64,000 bases of DNA from an uncultured Clostridia bacterium (GCA_934778205.1 CAKVOD010000001.1:126769-190768), one strand, 5' to 3'; numbered from the stretch's first letter, positions 50,641 through 54,986 are shown. Translations and numbers: made by a program. The notes: generated by a model not told the origin, from the letters alone.

Positions 50641-50832
50641 AGTGGCATCTCCTTTCAAGATTTCATCTTATTAGATTTAAGTTCTTATATTATATACAAA
50701 ACAAAAAAATTTGTCAAGCCATTTCTGCATATTGACAAAAAAGTTATGAGGGTATAAAGATAATTTATTTCAATTAATAATACTCATCGTTGGATTTTAG
50801 TTTTATCCATTAATTTGGTCACTAAAGTAAAG

Positions 50833-51146
50833 TTATCCACATACATTTTTGTACGCATACTCCAAATTCTTGCTACTTTCCTACATTTTTAAGACGTTAT
50901 CTCAATTTTTTGTTCCATTTTTAAGAAAGTTATCCACAATTGTGGATAACTCAAAAGTCTGCTTTTAAAAAATTGTGGTTTAGTACTTAACTATTTTATG
51001 TGGATAACTACACATAATTTATCCACTTTATCATAGTTTACAACTAAACAAACTAAAACTTGATTTTAACAAATCGAGTCAACTTTACCTAAGTAATATT
51101 GAGTCAAAAAAGCACTTATCCACAAAAGTTCACTAAATGTGGATAA
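50833..51146. promoter_or_regulatory. DnaA-box cluster 1 (oriC part, rpmH-dnaN intergenic)
   Basis: Perfect TTATCCACA/TGTGGATAA boxes at 50833-41, 50930-38, 50941-49, 50999-51007, 51116-24 and 51138-46. The 50930-50949 pair forms the palindrome TTATCCACAATTGTGGATAA. A one-mismatch box lies at 51019-27. Confidence 0.9.
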
Positions 51147-51289
51147 GTGTTTTTGCCATCATAAACAATTTGCAATATATTTTGAGTTGCAAAACACTTT
51201 AGTAAAAGCATTACCATTTAAATTTATTTATCTAAAAAGTCGATATTACCCCCAACTTTAACCATCCCGCCAACACAGTATAAAAACCA

Positions 51290-51578
51290 CTAAGCAGCGC
51301 AAAACCGTGCCGTCCTCAACAAGAACTAAGGCGTAGGGATAATAACCACAGCAGCGGGCTTTCCCGCCCACTCAAGAACAAAACCAATAAAAAACATAAA
51401 ACCATGCCACCTACTCAGTAACTTGCTTGCACAAACAATCCCCACAGCAGCGGGCTTTCCCGCCAGCAACAGGGCTATCCCCGCACGAGAGCAAAAAACA
51501 GTAGACAGCACAAAACTATGCCGTCGTACCTAGTCACTTACATGTAGGAAAAGTACCTGCAGCGGTGGCCTATGCCAC
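51290..51578 (-). repeat. Family-A array (~3 units) overlapping the dnaN stop codon, co-oriented with dnaN
   Basis: The minus strand reads ..TAG TGGC-ATAG-GCCA CCGCTGCAGGTACTTTTCCTACATGTAAG..GACGGCATAG...GCTCTCG | TGCGGGGATAGCCC.. | ..GGCGGGAAAGCCCGCTGCTGTGG... Confidence 0.8.
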
Positions 51579-52688
51579 TATGCGAACTGGAAGAATGAGG
51601 AAAAGATAATCATCCCCCTCAAAAGGCTTGATTATGCAAGGCGCAATCGGTGTTGTAAAATTGAGCGTAATAAACTCATCATTTACAACCTTCAAGCACT
51701 CAATAAAATAACGCGAGTTAAACGCCGTAGTCAAATCAACGCCGTTCAAAGAAATCGTAACATTTTCGTGAATGTTACCAATCTCACTATTTGATGAAAT
51801 TGCCAAAGTTTTGTCCTTGATTTCAAACTTTGCAATGTTGTTTCTCTCCACGCGTGCAAGCAAACTTGTGCGGTCAAGCGCTTCTTCAAGTTGCTTTTTG
51901 TTCACGGTCGTAATTGTAGTAAATTCGCCAGACGTGATGAGGTTATTATAATTAATAAATTCGCCGTCAAGCAAGCGCGATATAATAACAGCGCCCTCTT
52001 GCTCAATCATCACATACTGCTTTTGGAAAAACACTTTGATGCTCTCGTCCTTGTCGTCAATAACTTTAGTTATTTCCGCCAAACTCTTTGCTGGAACAAC
52101 AAATTTTGCCTCACTTGTTGCGTACAAAATCGGCTTTTTTGCTATACTCATACGATATCCATCGAGCGCAACAACGTTGACGCTCTTTTCACCCACCTCA
52201 AAGAAACACCCCTTAAAAAGTGGTCTTGCGTCGTCAAGTGAAACAGAAAAAATTGTCTTGTTGATAGCGTCCACAAAATCGTCCTTACTAATCTCAAAAT
52301 ACTGCTCGTTGGAAATCTTTTGTATGTTTGGAAACTCCTCAGCATTCAAACACTGCATATACCCCACACTGTCAGTATATGCAAGCTTCAGCTGATTATT
52401 CTCACTTACCTCAAGCGTAATTTGCTCATTAGTAAGTTTTCTCACATACTCACTAAAAAATTTTCCAGGAACAACAACCGTTCCTTCAAGCTTGACATCT
52501 GCCTTAATCTTGGTTTCAATCATAAGTTCAAGGTCGGTAGCGCTCAACTTCAAGCAATCGTTTTCAGCGACCAACTTTATCCCCTCCAAAATCGGGTTAG
52601 TTGTTCGCGTTGCGGTTGCTTTGATAACTTTCAAAACTGCATCGGCGAGGTCGAGTCCGTCGCAGATGACTTTCATTTGCGTGTTCAT
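51570..52688 (-). CDS. dnaN: DNA polymerase III beta sliding clamp
   Basis: 372 aa, three-domain clamp (..PILEGIKL.., ..LDGYRM.., C-terminal ..LILPVRI.). On the strand opposite to dnaA. Confidence 0.95.
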   Translation of the reverse strand: MNTQMKVICDGLDLADAVLKVIKATATRTTNPILEGIKLVAENDCLKLSATDLELMIETKIKADVKLEGTVVVPGKFFSEYVRKLTNEQITLEVSENNQLKLAYTDSVGYMQCLNAEEFPNIQKISNEQYFEISKDDFVDAINKTIFSVSLDDARPLFKGCFFEVGEKSVNVVALDGYRMSIAKKPILYATSEAKFVVPAKSLAEITKVIDDKDESIKVFFQKQYVMIEQEGAVIISRLLDGEFINYNNLITSGEFTTITTVNKKQLEEALDRTSLLARVERNNIAKFEIKDKTLAISSNSEIGNIHENVTISLNGVDLTTAFNSRYFIECLKVVNDEFITLNFTTPIAPCIIKPFEGDDYLFLILPVRIVA

Positions 52689-52829
52689 ACTGTCTCCTAA
52701 AGTTACATCATTTTAGCACACTTTAATTTTTCTGTAAAGCATTTTTAACACACTTTTTCATTTTTTTTATTTTTTTCTTTTCCACAAATCCACACTTTTT
52801 GTGCACACACTTTGCGTACTACATATATA

Positions 52830-52955
52830 GTAAGTACTTATATTATTATATAATTACTTAATATTAGTACTTACATTATATTAAGTATTACGCGCTTACT
52901 TAATTATAGTACTAATATTAATTGATATATGTACATAATAAATAGAAAGTACTGA
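52830..52955. repeat. AT-rich tract with four exact AGTACT palindromes (TAAGTACTTA-like motif)
   Basis: AGTACT occurs at 52833, 52866, 52908 and 52948, with TGTACA at about 52930. Lies immediately upstream of the dnaN start. Confidence 0.75.
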
Positions 52956-53046
52956 ACAAAGAAACAACCACTTAACGAAAAACACATTGACTTTCAAACT
53001 TTGGCATTTTGCACAAACAATCTTTGGTATTTGCAATCTTGCTCAT

Positions 53047-53595
53047 TTATCCACAAATGTTTCTACATTGTGCACAACTTATGTGCGGAATCCCTATTGA
53101 CACACGGTCTTGCTTTTTTGCAAAGCGTCTCATTTGTCGTAGTTACCACAACTACAGCCGCGGGCTATCCAGAAAACAGAGGCTTGTAAAGAAAACAACT
53201 GCTTGCTTATCGTAAAAATCTTATTCGACGTAATGACTTTGTTTTACTTCGGTCTATTTGCAAATAGTCATTACAGAGTACACGGCTTATTTGCCCACAA
53301 AGTCCACTAGAGGTAGTGACTGTACCTGTAGCAGCGGGCTATCCCGCCAGTATCTGCAGCCGCGGGGCTATCCCCGCAGGAGAAGAATTTTTTGATTTTT
53401 TAAATATTATCTTGTATTATTATTGTCTGTGCAAATGTGGATATCTTTTTCAAAACCACAATATATGGTGTACCTTTCCTCATTTTTGGCACTAACTATA
53501 CAATATATTGATTAACTTTTTGTGCATATTTTTGTGCATATCTTCAAATTTTATGCACAATTGTTCAACATTTTGCAAATTTTGCGTGTGGATAA
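53047..53595. promoter_or_regulatory. DnaA-box cluster 2 (oriC part, dnaN-dnaA intergenic)
   Basis: Perfect boxes at 53047-55 and 53587-95. TGTGGATAT at 53436-44. One-mismatch TGTGCATAT/TTATGCACA boxes at 53521, 53534 and 53551. Confidence 0.75.
53138..53380 (-). repeat. Family-A heads/units (minus orientation) within the dnaN-dnaA intergenic region
   Basis: Heads occur at 53138-53172, 53322-53350 and 53351-53380 (GTACCTGTAGCAGCGGGCTATCCCGCC; CTGCAGCCGCGGGGCTATCCCCGCAGG). Confidence 0.7.
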
Positions 53596-53698
53596 CCCGA
53601 TTTTGAGGCGCGATTTTTCGAAATTAGATTAAGTACTTTACGAAATTTGGCAAAAAAAAGTTTTTTTTGTCGATTTTTGAAAATCTTTGCCAAATCGG

Positions 53699-53726: not shown

Positions 53727-53781
53727 TTAAAATTTTGCCATTTTTCTCGCGCTCCCTCTTAGAATTTATTTTTATAAATTC

Positions 53782-54170
53782 TAGTGGCAGAGGCCACTGC
53801 TGGCGGGGGGAGCCCCGCTGCTACAGATTTGAGTTCCTACAAGCAATTTACTTGTGCGGACGGCAAACCCACACACTTTCTACTCACTCTTATTCTCGGT
53901 GGGTGGCAGAGGCCACTGCTGCAGATTTGAGTTTCTACGCTTTAGTTACTTGCGCGGACGGCATACCGTTACACTGCTTAGTCTTTTTTGTACTCGACGG
54001 GGAAAGCACCGTTGCTGTGGGTACTGTCATTAAGTCGAAATTGTTTTTTACAAAATCTTAAGTATGTGCTCTTGCAAAAGTTTATGTTTTACTGGAAAGC
54101 CCTCTGCTGCGGTTATTACTATTACAAATGAGACGCTTGGTACAAACTCTATATTCTTATTACTTTCCAC
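53782..54170 (+). repeat. Family-A array (4-5 units, plus orientation) upstream of the AT-rich core
   Basis: H1 GTGGC-AGAG-GCCAC occurs at 53784-53797 and 53903-53916. Other heads are CGGGG-GGAG-CCCCG, CGGGG-AAAG-CACCG and CTGG-AAAG-CCCT. Preceded by a sigma-A-like promoter (53699-53726). Confidence 0.8.
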
Positions 54171-54229
54171 ATTGTTGGTATTCATACTATTAGTGCTCTA
54201 AGTTCTTAGTATTACTTTTATTACTTTAT

Positions 54230-54700
54230 ATATGTACTTGCTATATTATAAATACTTAAAATATAATCACCTAATATATTGTAAGTACTTACACATAAGT
54301 ATATAATATATCATAAGTACTTAAATTATTAATACTTACTATATAATTAGTACTTAAATTATTAGTACTCACTATATAGTCTGTATTTAAATTAAAAAAA
54401 AACTTTCTATGTAAAAAGTACAAAATTTAATAAGTACATTATATATATTAAGAGTTTATATTAAAAGTACTATTAAGTTATTAAGTACATATATAATAAT
54501 TTCTTTCTATATTGTCCGTACTTATTTATTAGTACTTTCTATATTGTCCGTACTTATATATAAATTTTTTTATTTTATTAATTTTATTTATACTAATTAT
54601 TATTATTACTAAATTAATAATTAGGGTATACATATAAATATTTTCTATATATATAGTACTTATAATCACGTGCACGCTAACTAAATATTAAGTACTAAAC
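54230..54700. repeat. AT-rich core with eight exact AGTACT palindromes plus about six GTAC-containing variants, and an internal 22-bp direct repeat
   Basis: AGTACT occurs at 54284, 54316, 54349, 54364, 54466, 54531, 54655 and 54691. TTTCTATATTGTCCGTACTTAT is repeated at about 54503 and 54536. Confidence 0.8.
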
Positions 54701-54735
54701 ATATAATAAATGCTACCCCCAAAAAAAAATAAAAT

Positions 54736-54950
54736 TTGTAGTAGTGGGCTATCGCACCGAGAATAAGAGTGAGTAGAAATTGTGTGGGTTTGCCGTCCGC
54801 GCAAGAAACTAAAGCGTAGGAACTCAAATCTGTAGCAGTGGCCTTTGCCACCCGTCGAGAACAAAAGTGGGGGAGAAAGAACATTGGCTCGCCGTCCGCG
54901 CAAGTAACTAAAGTGTAGGAACAGTACCTGTAGCAGCGGGGCTATCCCCG
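54736..54950 (-). repeat. Family-A array (~2.5 units, minus orientation) abutting the dnaA promoter region
   Basis: 54757-54800 is the reverse complement of 53856-53899 with one mismatch. The head AGCGGGG-CTAT-CCCCGCT lies at about 54928-54950. Confidence 0.8.
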
Positions 54951-54951
54951 C

Positions 54952-54980
54952 TTGACTTATCAAGGAAAAGGTGGTATACT
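54952..54980 (+). promoter_or_regulatory. Sigma-A-like promoter (TTGACT-17-TATACT) ending 6 nt before the dnaA ATG
   Basis: TTGACT at 54952-57 and TATACT at 54975-80; the dnaA ATG is at 54987. Confidence 0.45.
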
Positions 54981-54986
54981 AAAAGT

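Follow-up and report, generated by a model that had tools for sequence, protein, structure and literature searches.

Gene order and position of the origin

The locus analysed here raises the question of how a chromosomal origin would fire when the replication genes around it have been turned about. In the 64 kb stretch of DNA that we analysed (the window), we found, in this order, rpmH on the minus strand, six perfect DnaA boxes, dnaN on the minus strand, a 2.3 kb spacer with two perfect boxes, and dnaA on the plus strand. The gene identities and strands given in a preliminary description of this DNA were borne out. rpmH (50506..50640, minus strand) translates into ribosomal protein L34, with 44 aa counted from the ATG; it is 95-100% identical in relatives by tblastn and was called as PF00468 in L005 and L006 (loci used for comparison carry L numbers). 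dnaN (51570..52688, minus strand) encodes a beta sliding clamp with all three beta-clamp Pfam domains (PF00712, PF02767 and PF02768), and dnaA (54987..56342, plus strand) encodes a protein with PF11638, PF00308 and PF08299 that scores 506.8 bits against the TIGR00362 equivalog (cut-off 343.9). The minus-strand genes of the left flank are rpmH, rnpA, yidD, yidC and jag. Gene calls place a 168-aa protein of unknown identity, mnmE, mnmG, parA and parB 3' of dnaA and, as had been claimed, no dnaN, recF or gyrB downstream of dnaA in the window.

Regarding the promoters, that of rpmH (TTGACA-17-TATAAT, 50689..50717, minus strand) matches the consensus at 12 of 12 positions and is unchanged in all eight aligned relatives, while that of dnaN (TTTACA-17-TG-TAAAAT, 52710..52738, minus strand) is kept clade-wide with a conservation of 0.82-0.86. 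On the plus strand, a distal element with an 11/12 match (TTGACT-16-TATAAT, 53699..53726), kept in L001, L005, L008 and L009, would from its sequence function as a promoter toward dnaA. The proximal dnaA promoter (TTGACT-17-TG-TATACT, 54952..54980, plus strand) ends 6 nt ahead of the ATG, its first 42 alignment columns are kept in L008 and L009, and the mRNA made from it may be leaderless.

We searched both strands of the whole window for the perfect DnaA box TTATCCACA and found eight copies, against 0.63 expected, at 50833, 50930, 50941 (minus), 50999 (minus), 51116, 51138 (minus), 53047 and 53587 (minus). All of them fall within 50833-53595, with none elsewhere in the 64 kb, and dnaN separates them into two clusters, with the six and two perfect boxes previously noted. 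Degenerate boxes with at most one mismatch lie at 51019, 52778, 53436, 53551 and 54986. The literature asks of an oriC cluster at least three boxes with a mean spacing below 100 bp, well above chance; the left (rpmH-side) cluster has seven boxes with up to one mismatch in 314 bp, and the core cluster in the dnaN-dnaA spacer has five with up to two mismatches in 160 bp.

Cumulative GC skew, taken from 64 kb alone and confounded with gene strand, drops to ~53-54 kb and runs level as far as 57 kb, with its minimum at 56260, before it climbs. Within the window, the minimum thus falls at the origin region, on a plateau of 54-57 kb. Genes are on the minus strand in 27 of 39 cases left of 53.4 kb and on the plus strand in all six cases to the right, so skew and gene-strand switches coincide, as expected of an oriC, on the scale of the 64 kb window. 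In addition, four perfect parS sites lie 8 kb from the origin region, after parB. Because the boxes, the two switches and the parS sites fall together, we place the origin here: the most supported reading is that the locus is the oriC of an uncultured gut Clostridia species, and we give this explanation as a whole, including the mode of firing set out below, a probability of roughly 0.6.

The layout in related genomes

Gene calling gave an identical DnaN protein on 23 contigs. Six loci were displayed; they come from six different samples and different assemblers and all have the same order and strands, with dnaA-dnaN spacers of 2093 to 2298 bp, and L008 and L009 share the layout despite differing repeats. 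With the layout assembled alike from six or more separate metagenome samples, we exclude the misassembly at the repeat arrays that the preliminary description had raised as a possibility. One could argue, from the REP arrays at every junction and a skew read from 64 kb only, that the order is an assembly artefact or that another part of the chromosome harbours the real origin; against the six concordant loci, the two relatives with other repeats and the coincidence of boxes, switches and parS, we consider this extremely improbable.

The position of dnaN itself proved to be old. In all 13 related Clostridia loci showing both genes (57-100% DnaN identity), dnaN is followed on its own strand by rpmH or rnpA, which speaks against a new placement of dnaN between rpmH and dnaA. 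The divergent dnaN/dnaA pair, in contrast, is confined to the window species and the two or three relatives nearest to it. A layout common in the clade had been named as grounds for refuting the preliminary description; this is half borne out, since the dnaN-rpmH adjacency is common and the divergent pair is not. We found neither arrangement described in the searchable literature.

In L018-L023 the order is gyrB(-) ... recF | dnaA(+) dnaN(+) rpmH(+) rnpA yidD yidC jag mnmE mnmG(+), with recF on varying strands, and in L017 it is rsmG(-) mnmG(-) mnmE(-) | dnaA(+) dnaN(+) rpmH(+) rnpA(+), where rpmH was spotted by eye. Compared with L017, the window chiefly has dnaA in the opposite orientation, and it also carries the 168-aa gene between dnaA and mnmE. 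Judged from these gene orders, the dnaN-rpmH adjacency appears to be the canonical cluster with its dnaA-dnaN cassette inverted, an old and common state, and the lineage-specific change appears to be confined to a flip of dnaA. First, the dnaA-oriC2-dnaN cassette would long ago have been inverted, bringing dnaN beside rpmH, a state common to a wide group of Clostridia; a later flip of dnaA with its promoter, in the window species and its closest relatives, would have made dnaA and dnaN divergent; and REP-like units and AGTACT-rich AT repeats would then have enlarged the spacers. In the succession of inversions that we infer, the gene order would reflect nested inversions around a module rather than a new kind of origin.

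A conserved module upstream of dnaN

In this module (53381-53445), a DnaA box is linked by a 12 nt spacer to three trinucleotide repeats, which adjoin an AT tract; it is the best-conserved non-coding block, with 0.81-0.94 across eight loci versus 0.12-0.20 in the adjoining 600 bp; its flanks are unalignable across the eight loci. The repeat-adjacent box ATATCCACA (53436-53444) and the 12 nt spacer TTTGCACAGACA, together at 53424..53444 on the minus strand, hold the highest-conserved 20 nt of the entire dnaA-dnaN spacer (0.94), and TTTGCACAGACA holds a second box, which is weak, and has an end that contains GC. From composition, stability and conservation, we predict unwinding at 53383..53423 (plus strand), where the AT tract 53383-53414 is followed by TAT TAT TAT (53415-53423) on the plus strand, the one that has its 5' end directed away from the box. 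This stretch is ~90% AT, has a stability of -0.98 kcal/mol per bp, is free of secondary structure as single-stranded DNA and is conserved at 0.81-0.82 in relatives down to 69% DnaN identity. The box scan puts the core cluster (53436..53595) at 53436 (minus), 53521 (minus), 53533 (minus), 53551 (plus) and 53587 (minus, perfect). Four of these five boxes are oriented toward the trinucleotide repeats, and they align with boxes in the dnaA-dnaN spacer of L010-L014 and L017.

The module aligns with the segment directly upstream of dnaN in L009, L010-L014 and L017, and in relatives it is always upstream of dnaN with its orientation unchanged. Homologous (TTA)n or (ATA)n runs occupy the corresponding place in L017 and L019-L023, and in relatives at 57-60% DnaN identity dnaN is immediately preceded by (TTA)3-6 or (ATA)n, with a CCC or TGC run ahead of these repeats and tandem boxes ahead of that run.

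The published search rule for a basal unwinding system (BUS; Richardson/Pelliciari/Murray) calls for a box with at most two mismatches, a spacer of up to 16 nt and at least three 3'-NAN-5' repeats on the strand whose 5' end is away from the box, a description that fits ATATCCACA, the 12 nt and TAT TAT TAT at 53415-53444. Because it has 14 matches in 4.4 kb of this AT-rich DNA, the rule is non-specific here and alone gives weak support. Beyond the rule, BUS spacer lengths in the literature peak at 10-13 nt, a range that includes the module's 12 nt; the polarity agrees with the published '5'-tail' statement and with the arrangement of unwinding element and R1 box in E. coli, which we checked against the E. 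coli oriC sequence; and a conserved tract of about 90% AT (53383-53414) follows the repeats. The repeats depart from the BUS consensus 3'-GAT-5', as the module reads 3'-TAT-5' with three repeats only, the central A being kept. Relatives have 3'-AAT-5' (L019, L021 and L023) or begin with 3'-GAT-5' (L020, relative to which the module's repeat frame is 1 nt off). Taken from sequence, then, 53381-53445 is the likely unwinding site. The unwinding candidates put forward earlier (52830-52955, 53600-53700 and 54180-54720) all miss 53383-53423, the sole AT tract conserved across the clade.

Inserted repeats and AT-rich blocks

Between the conserved core and the dnaN promoter lies an insertion of ~600 bp (52781..53380, conservation 0.12-0.20) that contains an AGTACT-rich AT block (52820-52955), the perfect box 53047 and REP units (53139-53378). 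It has no counterpart in the aligned L008, L010-L014 and L017, and in L009 the position holds no more than a shorter AT-rich stretch that aligns poorly. On the dnaA side, a composite inserted block (53785..54960) has inverted REP arrays (53785-54001 and 54736-54951; inverted repeats I1 and I2, with arms of 87-112 nt that are 80-89% complementary) around an AT tract. This 540 bp tract (54180-54720) is 82% AT, with roughly 17/33 bp repeats carrying TAAGTACTTA palindromes and a 33 bp period by tandem repeat finder, and the block has eight AGTACT sites against 0.11 expected. The block is wholly missing in L009, and that site in L008 is occupied by another AT array, of 1.9 kb. Since the tracts 52830-52955 and 54180-54720 are missing from relatives in the alignments, we read them as apparent recent insertions with REP-like units and AGTACT-rich repeats.

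Two further arrays were found. REP-like units with GC-rich hairpins (51290..51569; families D3, D6 and D7) have been inserted between the dnaN stop codon and the nearest pair of perfect boxes; they are absent from L009, L013 and L014, and their motif recurs at other intergenic sites in the window. At 56339..56634, REP units (56339-56495; D2, I6 and I15) that are inverted with respect to those upstream of dnaA precede a two-way terminator hairpin (56598-56634, terminator scan). REP arrays flank every junction of the layout.

The long AGTACT-rich blocks (52820-52955 or 54180-54720) might themselves be the true or an auxiliary unwinding element. They are the least stable duplex near the origin, and 54321-54620 is the least stable 300 bp of the 64 kb, so that under supercoiling stress the 54.2-54.7 kb block might be the first to melt; a long AT stretch of some kind lies to one side of the core in each of the window species, L008 and L009, and sites at 52930 (minus) and 54163 (plus) formally fit the BUS rule. 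However, L009 lacks the 54 kb block and L008 the 52.8 kb block, and even loci of the same species (L001 and L005) fail to conserve the box-like sequence at 54163. The blocks look like insertions, being flanked by REP arrays and differing in length between strains, and the AGTACT sites in L011 belong to an unrelated dispersed repeat. We therefore regard unwinding in these blocks as quite unlikely.

The rpmH-side box cluster

According to the box scan, the left cluster in the rpmH-dnaN spacer (50803..51146) comprises six perfect boxes, one with one mismatch and two with two mismatches, and includes the head-to-head palindrome TTATCCACAATTGTGGATAA at 50930-50949 as previously described. By comparison, the core has one perfect and four degenerate boxes. 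The sole conserved part of the left cluster is a convergent pair of perfect boxes, CACTTATCCACA-N13-TGTGGATAAGTG (51116..51146). Its boxes at 51116 and 51138, 22 nt start-to-start, recur with identical spacing after dnaN in L008, L009, L015 and L011, and in L013 with one box degenerate. The number of boxes in this cluster is 8 in L008, 6 in L015 and 2 in L009, which has just the pair. No boxes with up to one mismatch were found between dnaN and rpmH in L014 and L017-L023, apart from two 1-mismatch boxes in L020.

These data bear on the earlier proposal of a bipartite origin bracketing dnaN. In such an origin dnaN would be the spacer gene and neither cluster dispensable, the two being linked through DnaA looping in the manner of oriC1 and oriC2 of C. 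difficile and H. pylori. The box map fits this proposal, in that the left side has six perfect boxes and five related loci keep the convergent pair. Besides, neither C. difficile subregion alone supports unwinding in vitro, a distal box in B. subtilis is active up to 462 bp away in either orientation, and the spacer gene of bipartite origins is 'usually dnaA', hence not always. The comparison with relatives tells against it: L009 retains just the pair, and L014 and L017-L023 keep the module upstream of dnaN with no comparable rpmH-side boxes (two degenerate ones in L020). The geometry is also unlike that of known cases: seen from the module's boxes, the left cluster is reached only past the unwinding site and dnaN, at ~2.2 kb from the module rather than on its box side, and this distance varies between strains through REP insertions. 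We thus hold a truly bipartite origin to be unlikely. The left cluster (50803-51146) is best read as the remnant of an old rpmH-side subregion (oriC1), with a role that is probably auxiliary (DnaA looping, titration or regulation) and not essential.

Comparison with known origins

One of the closest known systems is B. subtilis oriC (incA/incB - dnaA - incC) with its BUS, which shares the co-oriented boxes, short spacer, trinucleotide repeats and AT tract directly upstream of dnaN, and the second box cluster on the rpmH side. In contrast to B. subtilis, here dnaN and not dnaA separates the clusters, transcription of dnaA leads away from the origin, the second cluster is found past the unwinding site rather than on the box side, the repeats are TAT instead of GAT, and ~1.8 kb of repeats are inserted in the spacer. 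C. difficile oriC1/oriC2 comes from the same bacterial class and likewise has repeats and an unwinding element upstream of dnaN and an rpmH-side box number that varies among species. The order rnpA-rpmH-dnaA-dnaN is retained in C. difficile and in the other clostridia that have been studied, except for C. tetani E88, with an uncharacterised gene upstream of dnaA-dnaN, whereas the clade studied here has the dnaA-dnaN cassette inverted and the window lineage has dnaA additionally flipped.

In H. pylori (oriC1-dnaA-oriC2) a gene also separates two box clusters, with the unwinding element in one; there the gene is dnaA, and here a need for both clusters would be hypothetical. Firmicute bipartite origins are defined by clusters split by dnaA in an rnpA-rpmH-dnaA-dnaN context, while in the window dnaN(-) lies between the clusters and dnaA outside them. 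E. coli datA and the B. subtilis DBCs are box clusters outside oriC, defined by their function in DnaA titration. The left cluster resembles them in being a dense, origin-proximal group of high-affinity boxes that has no unwinding module beside it, so titration is one possible role for 50803-51146, but it sits where the ancestral oriC1 would have been. Finally, Spiroplasma offers a lineage-specific change of oriC context, with guaB between rpmH and oriC. Both cases are clade-wide departures from rnpA-rpmH-oriC-dnaA-dnaN that leave the origin in place, although here the replication genes themselves are inverted and not just parted by an inserted gene.

On the reading that we favour, the origin most likely fires as B. 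subtilis incC and C. difficile oriC2 do. DnaA would bind the co-oriented boxes at 53436-53595, be guided from the last of them (53436-53444) over the 12 nt spacer onto the three trinucleotide repeats (53415-53423, plus strand) and open the adjoining AT tract (53383-53414). Forks would then move leftward through dnaN and rightward through dnaA, each co-directional with transcription. The layout is unusual in that neighbouring genes are flipped and the mechanism looks ordinary, which would make this locus a new gene context around a known type of origin, a finding of modest significance.

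Gene order and origin signals at the dnaN-dnaA locus

On the left flank, rmuC, cca, jag (47895-48605), yidC, yidD, rnpA and rpmH (50506-50640) follow one another in that order, all on the minus strand. The dnaN gene (51570-52688) is on the minus strand as well, and a non-coding spacer of 2298 bp separates it from dnaA (54987-56342), which lies on the plus strand. A gene of unknown function encoding 168 aa is found 3' of dnaA, together with mnmE, mnmG, parA and parB, these four on the plus strand. Perfect copies of the DnaA box TTATCCACA are located at 50833, 50930, 50941, 50999, 51116, 51138, 53047 and 53587, eight in all against 0.63 expected from shuffling, and a scan of the 64 kb gave none outside 50833-53595. 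When one mismatch was allowed, 15 of the 26 boxes of the window fell within 50.8-55.7 kb. The gene map and the box scan thus bear out every factual statement on genes, strands and boxes made in the preliminary description, which had proposed a split origin bracketing dnaN. Cumulative GC skew, computed within these 64 kb only, declines as far as about 53-54 kb, is level up to 57 kb and climbs beyond it, and the strand change of the window genes coincides with this switch. Four perfect canonical parS sites (TGTTTCACGTGAAACA) lie directly 3' of parB, at 63476, 63516, 63556 and 63656, with a spacing of exactly 40 bp among three of the four (63476-63671).

An assembly error at the repeats had been considered as a source of this layout, and our comparison excludes it. 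The gene for an identical DnaN protein is called on 23 contigs, and the six loci displayed each represent a separate sample, covering several ENA assemblies, one Hadza gut sample and one Logan assembly, with gene order and strands identical in all six. Their dnaA-dnaN spacers measure 2093-2298 bp because repeat copy numbers differ. Two other species (L008 and L009, with 95-96% DnaN identity) also have the layout, with quite different repeats.

Some further elements were recorded in the window. A 2519-aa ORF occupies 74-7633 on the plus strand, at the far left. The cca-jag spacer (47185-47500) contains a near-perfect hairpin of about 290 nt, with an RNA minimum free energy of -146 kcal/mol (z = -14.3 versus shuffles); it matched no Rfam family and may represent either a structured RNA or an element of the MITE type. 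Searching 46.9-57.5 kb against Rfam in gathering and E-value modes gave nothing relevant, and a match to AsdA was discarded at 27.9 bits, far under the 52-bit threshold. Upstream of parA, at 61501-61536, there is a perfect 36 bp palindrome (ACATTATTTTAGTTAAGTACTTAACTAAAATAATGT) whose centre, TAAGTACTTA, is also present upstream of parA in L001, L008, L010, L011 and L014; this suggests an operator or hairpin that has been conserved.

A conserved, probable unwinding module upstream of dnaN

We aligned the dnaN-dnaA spacer with those of L001 and L005 (window species), L008 and L009, and with the dnaA-dnaN spacers of the more distant L010-L014 and L017. Two islands are conserved: the dnaN promoter (52701-52740) and a core at about 53381-53600, which extends to 53783 within the window's own lineage. 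Conservation reaches its maximum (0.81-0.94) at 53381-53445, where the sequence read towards dnaN is (A/T)TATCCACA TTTGCACAGACA ATA ATA ATA CAAGATAATATTTAAAAAA. Here a DnaA box is followed by a 12 nt spacer containing a second, weak box, then by three trinucleotide repeats and finally by an AT tract. The published pattern of unwinding modules comprises a box with at most two mismatches, a spacer of up to 16 nt (peak 10-13), at least three 3'-NAN-5' repeats and AT-rich DNA, and the window module fits it by the formal rule and by conservation. Its repeats depart from the GAT consensus, reading TAT and numbering only three. The rule alone yields 14 matches in 4.4 kb, so it is conservation that carries the argument, and we retained the sole conserved match. 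Among the others, a striking one at 54163, with a box and nine NTN triplets where the big AT block begins, was set aside, its box not being conserved in L001 or L005.

The polarity of the module was checked in two ways, against the literature, which locates the repeats on a 5' tail, and against the E. coli sequence. The T-rich strand of the E. coli element reads 5'-unwinding element...TGTGGATAA-3' (confirmed in 5,423 genomes), and the plus strand of the window reads 5'-AT tract-TATTATTAT-tgtctgtgcaaa-TGTGGATAT-3', with the same polarity. The remaining core boxes lie upstream of the module box, co-oriented with it at 53521, 53533 and 53587 and opposed at 53551, and align with boxes in relatives. 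In more distant loci, tandem degenerate boxes directly before dnaN are followed by CCC or CC and six TTA repeats (L021 and L023), while the sequence before dnaN is CCCC and then TTATTATTATGATTATTATT in L019, and TGC and then TAATAATAAT in L020. All four share the design of the window core.

The preliminary description had instead named three AT-rich tracts as candidate unwinding sites. The first, 52830-52955, belongs to a 600 bp segment (52781-53380) with no counterpart in L008, L010-L014 or L017, and at that position L009 shows no more than an AT-rich stretch that is shorter and aligns poorly. The second, 54180-54720, is part of a 1.2 kb block (53785-54960) that is wholly absent from L009 and is bounded by inverted REP-like arrays, with arms of 87-112 nt that are 80-89% complementary. 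Unwinding at either place is improbable, as these segments are missing in relatives and patchy in distribution. The third, 53600-53700, is conserved in the window's own lineage, but it is just 71% AT and holds a strong promoter (53699-53726) aimed at dnaA.

AT blocks and REP-like units around the core

The two long AT blocks are built of repeats of about 17/33 bp with the palindrome TAAGTACTTA, and 12 of the 23 AGTACT sites of the window fall within these 700 bp, against about 0.15 expected. In L008 a similar array extends over 1.9 kb at the site of 54180-54720, and L009 has none. One could argue that the blocks (52820-52955, 54180-54720 and the L008 array) are more than junk insertions and form a lineage-specific origin module, which would either help in unwinding or offer arrayed sites where an origin-associated factor binds or methylates the DNA, cooperating with the newly divergent dnaN|dnaA arrangement in which both genes are co-directionally replicated. 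We consider this reading very improbable. No DNA near the origin is less stable than these blocks, and they may therefore assist in opening; their patchy distribution argues against a core role. AGTACT was also discarded as a shared origin motif, since the sites in L011 are part of a different dispersed repeat, and TAAGTACTTA was rejected as a variant parS because of the four canonical sites at 63.5 kb.

The REP-like units, of about 98 nt with a GC hairpin and a CTGYAGCRGYGG motif, constitute a dispersed intergenic family, often in tandem or inverted arrays. They were located at 47040-47170, 47690-47830, 51290-51569, 53139-53378, 53785-54130, 54736-54951, 56339-56495 and 58820-59020, and also at 7652 and 35782. 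The motif has 16 matches in the window (including 7.6, 35.8, 47 and 58.8-59.0 kb), 12 of them at most 6 kb from the origin, and its copy number varies between strains of one species. A separate, species-specific repeat of about 200 bp, with CTAGGGGATGAAATCCCCTAG hairpins and TAGTACTAA motifs, is inserted upstream of dnaA and downstream of dnaN in L011 (7150-7700 and 11100-12400). Origin-flanking spacers seem to be insertion hot spots across the clade.

Gene order in relatives and a proposed inversion of dnaA

With dnaN written on the plus strand, L010-L014 (84% DnaN identity) have the order parB(-) parA(-), two FAD-enzyme genes(+), dnaA(+) dnaN(+) rpmH(+) rnpA yidD yidC jag(+), with an additional small unknown ORF beside the FAD-enzyme genes in L013. 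L017 (69%) has rsmG(-) mnmG(-) mnmE(-), dnaA(+) dnaN(+) rpmH(+) rnpA(+), its rpmH having been assigned by eye. The six loci L018-L023 (57-60%) have gyrB(-) ... recF, dnaA(+) dnaN(+), zero or one gene, and rpmH(+) rnpA yidD yidC jag mnmE mnmG(+); recF is on the plus strand in L020 and L022, and gyrA is present where the loci extend that far. The sole distant match, from a Gemmatimonadaceae (L016), shows the textbook rpmH(-) | dnaA(+) dnaN(+).

In all 13 related loci showing both genes, dnaN has rpmH or rnpA downstream of it on its own strand, so the position of dnaN between rpmH and dnaA is old and common in the clade. The possibility that the layout is already common there therefore holds for the rpmH/rnpA-dnaN adjacency, and fails for the divergent dnaN|dnaA arrangement, which is recent. 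What sets the window apart from L017 is mainly that dnaA is reversed; in addition, the 168-aa gene stands between dnaA and mnmE. As read from these gene orders, dnaA and its promoter flipped together in a recent event common to the window species, L008 and L009, and probably also to L015. Inverted REP units (I6, I15) do bracket dnaA, but a REP-mediated flip cannot be claimed because dnaA is oriented this way in L009 too, where no REPs precede it.

The 168-aa ORF (56784-57290) matched no Pfam or NCBIfam family and has no homology to a 175-aa gene upstream of dnaA in L013. It was found in L001-L006 and L009 (76% identity) and not detected in L008. It was discarded as an origin factor, since its presence does not track the AT arrays (absent from L008, with arrays; present in L009, without). 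Between mnmG and parA, rsmG (gidB) is missing, and the 500 bp gap (61218-61718) is non-coding and very AT-rich; rsmG adjoins mnmG in the more distant L017, L021 and L023. The dnaA-dnaN spacer of L018 is only 69 bp (7932-8000), and three origin-proximal spacers scanned in this locus gave no DnaA box with at most one mismatch, so its origin may be elsewhere or its boxes divergent.

The rpmH-side box cluster

The rpmH promoter is invariant across the clade. Among the boxes between rpmH and dnaN (50803-51146), only the convergent pair 51116/51138 (CACTTATCCACA-N13-TGTGGATAAGTG) recurs after dnaN, in L008, L009, L015, L011 and partly L013. At this place L009 has only the convergent pair and L008 has eight perfect boxes. 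The dnaN-rpmH region of L014 and L017-L023 shows no box with at most one mismatch, except for two degenerate boxes in L020. The left boxes are most simply explained as the old oriC1, which would have stayed beside rpmH when the dnaA-dnaN cassette inverted. A candidate relic dnaA promoter near 50733 (plus strand, TTGACA...TATAAA) was rejected, being not conserved in L008 or L009. At present the cluster may loop to the core, titrate DnaA, block dnaN read-through or do nothing. The geometry differs from that of known bipartite origins because here the unwinding site and dnaN separate the two clusters.

Proposed working of the origin and its significance

E. coli DnaA binds the T-rich strand of the unwinding element. 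In the window, DnaA would occupy the core boxes, spread onto the repeats and open 53383-53423, where helicase loading would follow. Of the two forks, the one heading left would then cross the insertion and dnaN, the one heading right would traverse the boxes, repeats and dnaA, and each would be co-directional with transcription. In those relatives where dnaA has not flipped, and likewise in B. subtilis, its transcription would head towards the unwinding site. After the flip, boxes once downstream of dnaA would precede its two conserved promoters, one at 53699-53726 and one at 54952-54980 that ends 6 nt before the ATG, which makes DnaA autoregulation through these boxes plausible. The proximal promoter (TTGACT-17-TG-TATACT; 54952-54989 region) is conserved in L008 and L009 and leaves no well-spaced Shine-Dalgarno, and the dnaA mRNA starting from it may be leaderless.

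In mechanism the origin appears to resemble B. subtilis incC and C. difficile oriC2, and in C. difficile the repeats and unwinding element also lie upstream of dnaN. The locus lacks the gene context that defines the oriC1-dnaA-oriC2 type. Altered origin contexts are known from particular clades, guaB in Spiroplasma being one example, and according to reviews an origin can function in the absence of the conserved gene cluster. We found no description of the dnaA-dnaN-rpmH order or of a divergent dnaN|dnaA origin in the searchable literature. We therefore rate the locus as an origin of a known type whose gene context is a new variant, with no surprise in mechanism, and nothing in these findings points to a new one.

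An origin finder that assumes the rpmH-dnaA-dnaN order, or that selects the densest box cluster or the tract richest in AT, would put the unwinding site of these genomes in the wrong place. The locus also provides a natural example of a dnaA gene whose transcription no longer runs head-on towards that site. Across a wide, mostly uncultured branch of Clostridia, the fixed piece is a box-repeat-AT module tied to the start of dnaN, around which dnaA, rpmH, recF-gyrBA and mnmEG-parAB have probably been reshuffled by nested inversions. This natural variation supports the unwinding module as the core of the origin, with the oriC1-dnaA-oriC2 layout being dispensable.
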